A stretch of DNA of 7,142 nt from Naegleria gruberi (Eukaryota): the NCBI GenBank assembly GCA_000004985.1, contig GG739133.1. One strand, given 5' to 3'. A program made the translations under genes and the position numbers. The notes under the pieces are model-generated. The model was not told the origin of the DNA, made no database searches, and worked only from the letters and a program-made list of their open reading frames with translations. Below, one piece after another: positions 2,834 to 3,343 of the stretch. Position 1 is the stretch's first letter. The number at the start of each line of letters is the position of its first letter.

Positions 2834-2863
2834 GAGCCTTGTCCGAAACCCTGTTTTTTTTCG
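2834..2863 (+). repeat. Left terminal inverted repeat of the nested element.
   Basis: See the element entry above. The outer 15 bp match the right TIR perfectly, there is a 4-5 bp divergent patch, and then T8CG is shared. Confidence 0.75.
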
Positions 2864-2967
2864 CAAAGGTGAGAAAGCCCGAAAATCGAAACAAACGAGA
2901 CACAACACATTCACAACAGCCTTTTCTTCTTTCGCTCCTCGAAACTTGTGCCGGGATTCTTTCTCCT

Positions 2968-3055
2968 NNNNNNNNNNNNNNNNNNNNNNNNNNNNNNNNN
3001 NNNNNNNNNNNNNNNNNNNNNNNNNNNNNNNNNNNNNNNNNNNNNNNNNNNNNNN
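2968..3055. other. N-run of 88 bp (assembly gap or masked sequence) inside the nested element.
   Basis: Seen directly. Confidence 1.
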
Positions 3056-3313
3056 TTTCGAAAGTGCTTTCGAAACTTTCACTCAACTGCAAGAAGTAAA
3101 ATATTTTTATGAGAAGAGAATTTCTTTCTGGTTGGTTTCGAATGTGGTTGTAAGGAAACACTTGTCACGCTTTCATTTACCCATTGTTTTGGCAAGAAGA
3201 TCCAAATCGCTTTCGCACAAAAAAGAATCCCTCTTGTTTCAGCGCTCACACAAATAACAAAATGTGATGAGAGAAAGCGAAAAAGAAGCGTGAGTGTTTA
3301 CTTTTTCAAAAAT

Positions 3314-3343
3314 TCGAAAAAAAAGCGTTTTCGGACAAGGCTC
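3314..3343 (-). repeat. Right terminal inverted repeat of the nested element.
   Basis: Its reverse complement, gagccttgtccgaaaacgcttttttttcg, aligns to 2834-2863. Confidence 0.75.

Follow-up and report, generated by a model that had tools for sequence, protein, structure and literature searches.

The segment at positions 2834 to 3343 of the analysed window (the whole stretch of DNA studied here, 7142 bp in length) is very probably a non-autonomous DNA transposon with terminal inverted repeats (TIRs), i.e., a MITE, of some superfamily. It shows the anatomy of a MITE: the segment is small and without detectable coding capacity, it ends in short TIRs that are bordered by a direct repeat, and it is precisely absent from related elements. 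The window consists of AT-rich eukaryotic DNA, and the segment lies in ORF2 of an L1-like retrotransposon. A first-pass annotation of the window had described a TIR-bounded, MITE-like element of about 0.5 kb inserted in a retrotransposon ORF2, and the edges of the segment and the comparison with related retrotransposons, both described below, bear this description out.

Terminal Inverted Repeats and Boundaries of the Element

The sequence GAGCCTTGTCCGAAA is found at positions 2834–2848 and its exact reverse complement at 3329–3343, which together form a perfect 15-nt inverted repeat, and the outermost bases of the element are GAGCC...GGCTC. Pairing of the element ends extends over about 30 nt with one indel: the perfect 15-nt core is followed by 4–5 variable bases and by the T8CG block TTTTTTTTCG. 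The left TIR (2834–2863, plus strand) is composed of GAGCCTTGTCCGAAA, CCCTG and TTTTTTTTCG, and the reverse complement of the right TIR (3315–3343, minus strand) is composed of GAGCCTTGTCCGAAA, ACGC and TTTTTTTTCG. A repeat finder extended the arms to 2833–2860 and 3317–3344 (28 nt at 86%). The gapped alignment of the ends thus confirmed the perfect 15-bp repeat and the imperfect TIRs of about 30 bp with T8CG blocks that had been annotated from the first inspection. Chance had been considered a negligible explanation for the 15-bp repeat, and dinucleotide-preserving shuffles of the window led to the same view: matches to the 15-mer with up to 3 mismatches occurred with a mean of 0.04 per shuffle, and at least two matches were found in 0 of 200 shuffles. 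Among the inverted repeats detected across all 7142 bp of the window, it was the only one not of the AT/(AAT)n-type low complexity.

As scaffolded, the inserted MITE-like element (2834–3343, no strand assigned) comprises 510 bp. Of these, 422 bases are known, and the remaining 88 N (2968–3055) are an assembly gap that marks a contig break inside the inserted sequence. The length of the element is an estimate, since the size of this gap is scaffolded. The gap hides a part of the interior, and neither the length nor the absence of a coding remnant (see below) is fully established.

Directly at the edges of the inverted repeat the trinucleotide AAT is present as a direct repeat on the plus strand, with the left copy at 2831–2833 and the right copy at 3344–3346, and represents a candidate 3-bp target-site duplication (TSD). 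We scanned the boundaries and their surroundings for flanking direct repeats of 2–10 bp: AAT is located exactly at 2834/3343, nothing longer was detected and no other length fits. The chance of a 3-bp flanking match in an AT-rich context is about 0.03.

The Interrupted Retrotransposon

ORF1 of the host retroelement (518–1882, plus strand) encodes 454 aa with an N-rich N-terminus, consisting of a long poly-asparagine stretch, and its C-terminal region shows a weak PspA-like match that is probably due to a coiled coil. No Pfam family was found in ORF1. The C-terminal part of ORF1 is similar to an ORF1 remnant in L001, the locus of the closest relative (described below). The stop codon TAA of ORF1 directly abuts the ATG of ORF2 at position 1883 (TAAATG), an arrangement that is shared by L001.

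ORF2 is present in three parts, all on the plus strand. The 5′ part with the AP-endonuclease region (1883–2833) is free of stop codons up to the insertion point, the continued part with the linker and the reverse transcriptase (RT; 3347–4512) is free of stop codons up to a second gap, and the C-terminal continuation (6705–7142) resumes at about position 6705, after a second interruption. In the upstream part a weak match to Exo_endo_phos was found (residues 8–161, E 7e-4, below the Pfam cut-off), while the match of the downstream part to RVT_1 is clear (E 2.6e-28). The combination of AP endonuclease and reverse transcriptase in ORF2 identifies the host as an L1-like non-LTR retrotransposon. 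The element is located in the linker between these two domains, exactly where the first-pass annotation had placed the insertion.

The stop-free stretches of ORF2 that flank the inserted sequences comprise 317, 389 and 144 codons. This suggests that the host copy is young, and that the insertion would be younger still and thus recent. Inside the element the frame of ORF2 hits a stop codon at 2870–2872, so that ORF2 is disrupted and this copy of the retroelement is inactivated.

Upstream of the retroelement, the minus strand of positions 1–517 carries the start of a host gene for a Ser/Gly/Asn-rich low-complexity protein, which has its ATG at 476 and runs off the end of the window. No homologue of its product (encoded by 1–476) was found among 5.8 billion proteins. 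The ATG of ORF1 is only 41 bp away from the start codon of this gene, which places the 5′ end of the retroelement in the immediate upstream region of the gene. No tRNA gene was detected near the 5′ end of the retroelement.

Related ORF2 Proteins without the Segment

The closest relative of the retroelement was found on a 4.4-kb contig (L001, positions 1–4358) as a copy that is truncated within ORF1 and contains an intact ORF2 of 1157 aa. It provides an uninterrupted reference for both interrupted ORF2 sites of the window. When the window was compared to L001 by blastn, the alignment covered positions 1880–2833 and broke off exactly at the element's left edge. When the filled site is aligned to L001 as DNA, the result is clean on this left side only, because the DNA diverges downstream, and it is the protein alignment that constitutes the usable evidence for an empty site.

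For this protein comparison the ORF2 protein was joined after removal of positions 2834–3343 together with one AAT codon, and the joined protein was used as query. The search yielded 19 hits, the best of which cover 93–100% of the query. The closest relative (P0001, from GCA_050043615.1) shows 71% identity to the joined ORF2, and further relatives are from Willaertia magna (P0003, 40% identity), from a Logan assembly (P0002, 37%) and from Naegleria fowleri (P0004, 35%). In the multiple alignment the junction between CKEYQILLKIKNN and LQQVFHNHKRKLN faces the junction between CKEYQNLLYIKND and IYKYYHKQKKKLN of P0001, and there are 0 gaps at this position in any of the sequences. The empty site KIKNN-LQQVFHNH, which had been predicted from the window, can therefore be aligned to all four ORF2 relatives with no gap. 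It is the retention of one AAT that results in the gap-free alignment of the ORF2 proteins, and this agrees with a TSD of 3 bp.

The segment is absent from all four relatives; the comparison is one with related elements and not with sister copies of one family within a single genome.

Tentative Assignment to a Superfamily

A TSD of 3 bp is a hallmark of PIF/Harbinger elements, which include the Tourist MITEs, and of CACTA elements. The element described here has a TSD of 3 bp as in PIF/Harbinger, yet its sequence is AAT and not the canonical TAA/TTA (TWA). For the founding Tourist element the TIR GGCCTTGTTCGGTT and the TSD TAA/TTA were reported (PMC11560428), and rice elements of the PIF family have GGCCTTGTTCGGTTG in common (PMC2631504). 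When GAGCCTTGTCCGAAA is compared to the Tourist TIR GGCCTTGTTCGGTT, 9 of the 10 positions of the core GCCTTGTYCG agree. By this match the TIR of the element resembles PIF/Harbinger termini of the GGCCTTGTTCGG type. The match is short and lends moderate support, as the likeness comprises 10 bases only and was selected out of a large number of known TIR consensus sequences. Because the 3-bp TSD and the Tourist-like terminal core GCCTTGTCCG occur together, we tentatively consider PIF/Harbinger (Tourist-like) as the most likely superfamily, with a confidence that stays somewhat short of even.

Like Tourist MITEs, the element is small and non-coding and has a 3-bp TSD, and the perfect part of its TIR (15 nt) corresponds to the 14–15 nt of the Tourist TIRs. 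It differs from them by its size of about 0.5 kb compared to the 128 bp of the classic Tourist element, which was first described in maize wx-B2, by an interior that is rich in the pentamer TTTCG/CGAAA, and by its host, a protist and probably a heterolobosean instead of a plant.

The same features leave some room for a MITE of another superfamily, namely one of the 3-bp-TSD groups such as CACTA/EnSpm, Zator or Academ-like elements, or an unclassified lineage-specific family. We regard this as rather unlikely: the duplication of AAT rather than TWA and the shortness of the similarity to the Tourist TIR would be in line with such an assignment, but the TIR core agrees with Tourist at 9 of 10 bases and the termini begin with GAGCC and not with CACTA/CACTG. 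For CACTA/EnSpm in particular, the termini GAGCC...GGCTC led us to reject the assignment. Tc1/mariner elements including the Stowaway MITEs were rejected as well, as no TA duplication is present at the boundaries of the inverted repeat, and so was hAT, since there is no 8-bp TSD and no direct repeat of more than 3 bp at or near the boundaries.

The Tdd-4 and Tdd-5 elements (Ginger2/TDD) are, like the element proposed here, cut-and-paste DNA transposons with TIRs from an AT-rich amoeba. Tdd-4/5 have a length of 3.8 kb, TIRs of 260–297 bp and 5-bp TSDs, and encode an integrase-like transposase; Ginger2/TDD elements are characterised by TSDs of 4–5 bp and TIRs of about 50–300 bp (PMC2836005). In contrast, the TIRs of the element in ORF2 measure about 30 bp, its TSD is 3 bp long and it contains no ORF, and the assignment to Ginger2/TDD was rejected on the basis of TSD length and TIR length.

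Composition, Motifs and Coding Content of the Interior

The 422 known bases of the element have a GC content of 39.3% and contain 20 CpG dinucleotides (CpG o/e 1.23). The part of ORF2 to the left (upstream) of the element has a GC content of 25.1% and 3 CpGs (o/e 0.20), and the part to the right (downstream) has a GC content of 29.1% and 11 CpGs (o/e 0.46). Composition switches sharply at both edges of the element. These values are in good agreement with the initial description of an element of about 40% GC that is rich in CpG and resides in an AT-rich, CpG-poor host.

In the 422 bp, 15 copies of the pentamer TTTCG/CGAAA are present, compared to 4.0 ± 1.8 in dinucleotide-preserving shuffles, and the number of 15 was reached in 0 of 2000 shuffles. 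The occurrences are spread along the whole element (2844–3333) in both orientations, and two TTTCGAAA palindromes are found among them at 3056–3075. Since 15 of the 20 CpGs of the element sit within TTTCG or CGAAA, these pentamers account for its richness in CpG. Known TIR transposons, e.g., Ac/Ds, have comparable subterminal repeats that bind transposase. By analogy, the TTTCG/CGAAA pentamers may be putative transposase-binding sites. The repetition of a short motif in both orientations is a feature that the element has in common with Ac/Ds-type and CACTA non-autonomous elements, but neither the 8-bp TSDs of Ac/Ds (hAT) nor the CACTA/G start of CACTA elements is present.

The longest ORF of the element (141 aa) crosses the N gap. 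A pseudo-protein that was built from all stop-free pieces of the six frames gave no homologue at E ≤ 10 among 5.8 billion proteins, and the earlier statement that the segment contains no meaningful ORF is supported by this search. Thus, the element is small (about 510 bp as scaffolded, with 88 N unseen) and no coding sequence for a transposase was detected in it. No Rfam family was found in the element at E ≤ 1 and no tRNA was found by ARAGORN; a structured RNA, a group I intron and a tRNA-derived element were ruled out on these grounds.

The gap in the interior also allows for the view that what was sequenced are the two ends of a larger DNA transposon, perhaps an autonomous one, the inner part of which is understated by the 88 N. 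The interior is indeed broken by an assembly gap, and a contig break marks a region that the assembler did not resolve. We nevertheless judge this to be improbable, considering that no coding remnant is present in any frame of the 422 known bases and that neither gap in the window has a round size (88 and 1379), which points to estimates from spanning read pairs.

Another explanation holds that the segment is a constant component of this particular retroelement family and would be carried by all of its copies, either as captured sequence or as a spliceable insert of the introner type. Some features are compatible with it. As scaffolded, the 510 bp are divisible by 3, a donor close to the consensus, AAAG/GTGAGAA, is present at 2869 just before the first in-frame stop codon, and 11 of the 84 GT..AG pairs would restore the frame. 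The length argument, however, depends on the estimated gap, and in-frame GT..AG pairs are so frequent that they are expected by chance where the downstream frame is open. Moreover, the four relatives lack the segment, an intron would be lost from a retrotransposed copy, and TIRs together with a flanking direct repeat are the signature of a transposase-mediated insertion. On balance, this explanation is very improbable.

Introner-type MITEs share several traits with the element: it is also a TIR element within coding sequence, a GT donor close to the consensus is found near its left end, and AG acceptors are present that would restore the frame. They differ from it in that the interrupted gene is here a retrotransposon ORF, and the frame-restoring pairs are not above chance. 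For the latter reason, the 11 of 84 pairs were not accepted as evidence for introner-like splicing. The donor (2866–2875) overlaps the first in-frame stop codon inside the element. Within 3225–3375 several AG acceptors are present that would bring ORF2 back into frame, and splicing of 2869–3339, for instance, would leave an in-frame remnant of 13 codons.

Search for Further Copies and Lineage of the Relatives

The strict TIR pattern (15-mer, 4–5 N, T8CG) gave 0 matches in metagenome contigs, a collection that does not include the source genome, and 0 matches in 185,579 prokaryotic genomes. With a looser TIR pattern 28 single hits were obtained in metagenome contigs, and the bare 15-mer gave 53 single hits in viral contigs. 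When both halves of the element were compared to the fetched loci by blastn, no match extended beyond 15–19 nt, apart from one imperfect match of 26 nt. As the matches stop at 15–19 nt, the hits of the looser pattern and of the 15-mer are attributed to chance. In three related heterolobosean loci (L001, L083 and L084) we detected neither similarity to the element nor any 15-mer that matches the TIR with 3 or fewer mismatches. The absence of a second copy from these collections, which do not contain the source genome, is weak evidence against repetitiveness. Exact look-ups of the product of ORF1 and of the N-terminal product of ORF2 returned no entry, the flanking host gene has no homologue there, and the best ORF2 hit reaches only 71% identity. 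The TIR sequence did not occur in any of the papers searched, and these included no work on MITEs of Naegleria or Willaertia either.

An origin from a vector or contaminant was rejected, as blastn of both element halves against plasmids remained without match. That the segment results from an assembly or scaffolding artefact, or from a contaminant that was joined into the scaffold, is very improbable: the window does contain two gaps within 7 kb, the element is split between two contigs and its composition is unlike that of the host, but the two contigs independently join ORF2 to one repeat arm each at the same codon and with a 3-bp direct repeat, both element halves lack similarity to plasmids even in a distant blastn search, and the strict TIR pattern is absent from prokaryotic genomes.

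The first-pass annotation had placed the window in a dictyostelid context, and this part was not sustained. Those relatives of the host ORF2 that bear a species name come from Willaertia magna and Naegleria fowleri (Heterolobosea); none of the 19 hits is a dictyostelid protein. A 22-kb locus of W. magna has a GC content of 23% and is AT-rich like the window. Judged by the homology of the transposable element, the host of the retroelement is, with moderate confidence, a heterolobosean or an organism close to one. Since the host probably does not belong to the dictyostelids, the comparison with the dictyostelid families Tdd-4/5, DDT and thug is probably beside the point.

A Second Interruption of ORF2

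ORF2 is interrupted a second time at 4513–6704, by a gap of 1379 N that is followed by a fragment of 813 bp (5892–6704, 40% GC). This fragment encodes a complete RVT_1 domain of the LTR-retroelement type, and its best relatives with solved structures are the RTs of Ty3 and of caulimoviruses. The foreign RT fragment ends abruptly about 27 codons past the RT domain, where it abuts the host ORF2 at about position 6705, and no terminal repeat is present. Such an abrupt end suggests a truncation of the fragment at its 3′ end, a rearrangement or a chimeric scaffold join. About 268 bp of the host ORF2, corresponding to positions 2816–3083 of L001, are missing or concealed in the gap of 1379 N. Both gaps of the window lie inside inserted sequence, as would be expected of genome repeats that the assembler did not resolve.

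Proposed Mechanism of Insertion

The arrangement of TIRs, flanking repeat and interrupted reading frame suggests the following course of events. A transposase that is encoded elsewhere in the genome would be supplied in trans and would recognise the TIRs of about 30 bp and possibly also the TTTCG/CGAAA pentamers. It would excise a donor copy, which would then integrate through a 3-bp staggered cut, and repair would leave AAT on both sides. In this way the element, which would be mobile and one of several copies in the genome, would have entered the linker between endonuclease and RT of ORF2 in a young L1-like copy by cut-and-paste transposition.

A more detailed reading states that the element belongs to an undescribed family of Tourist-like (PIF/Harbinger) MITEs in Heterolobosea, that this family was recently active, and that its interior consists largely of TTTCG/CGAAA motifs serving as putative transposase-binding sites. 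Taken as a whole, we consider this reading doubtful. More speculative is the addition that the element could be tolerated in coding sequence through introner-like splicing from the AAAG/GTGAGAA donor at 2869.

Implications

As biology, a nested insertion of this kind is ordinary and implies no new mechanism. It does provide an order for the activity of transposable elements: the MITE moved after the L1-like copy was made. Since the ORFs of this L1-like copy are still open, this genome would have had an active source of transposase in the recent past. It may be that the MITE family is undescribed. Should the family turn out to be multi-copy, the thin catalogue of transposable elements in an under-studied protist lineage would gain a class II family, and a consensus for repeat masking would become available, which is of relevance since both gaps of the window lie in inserted repeats.
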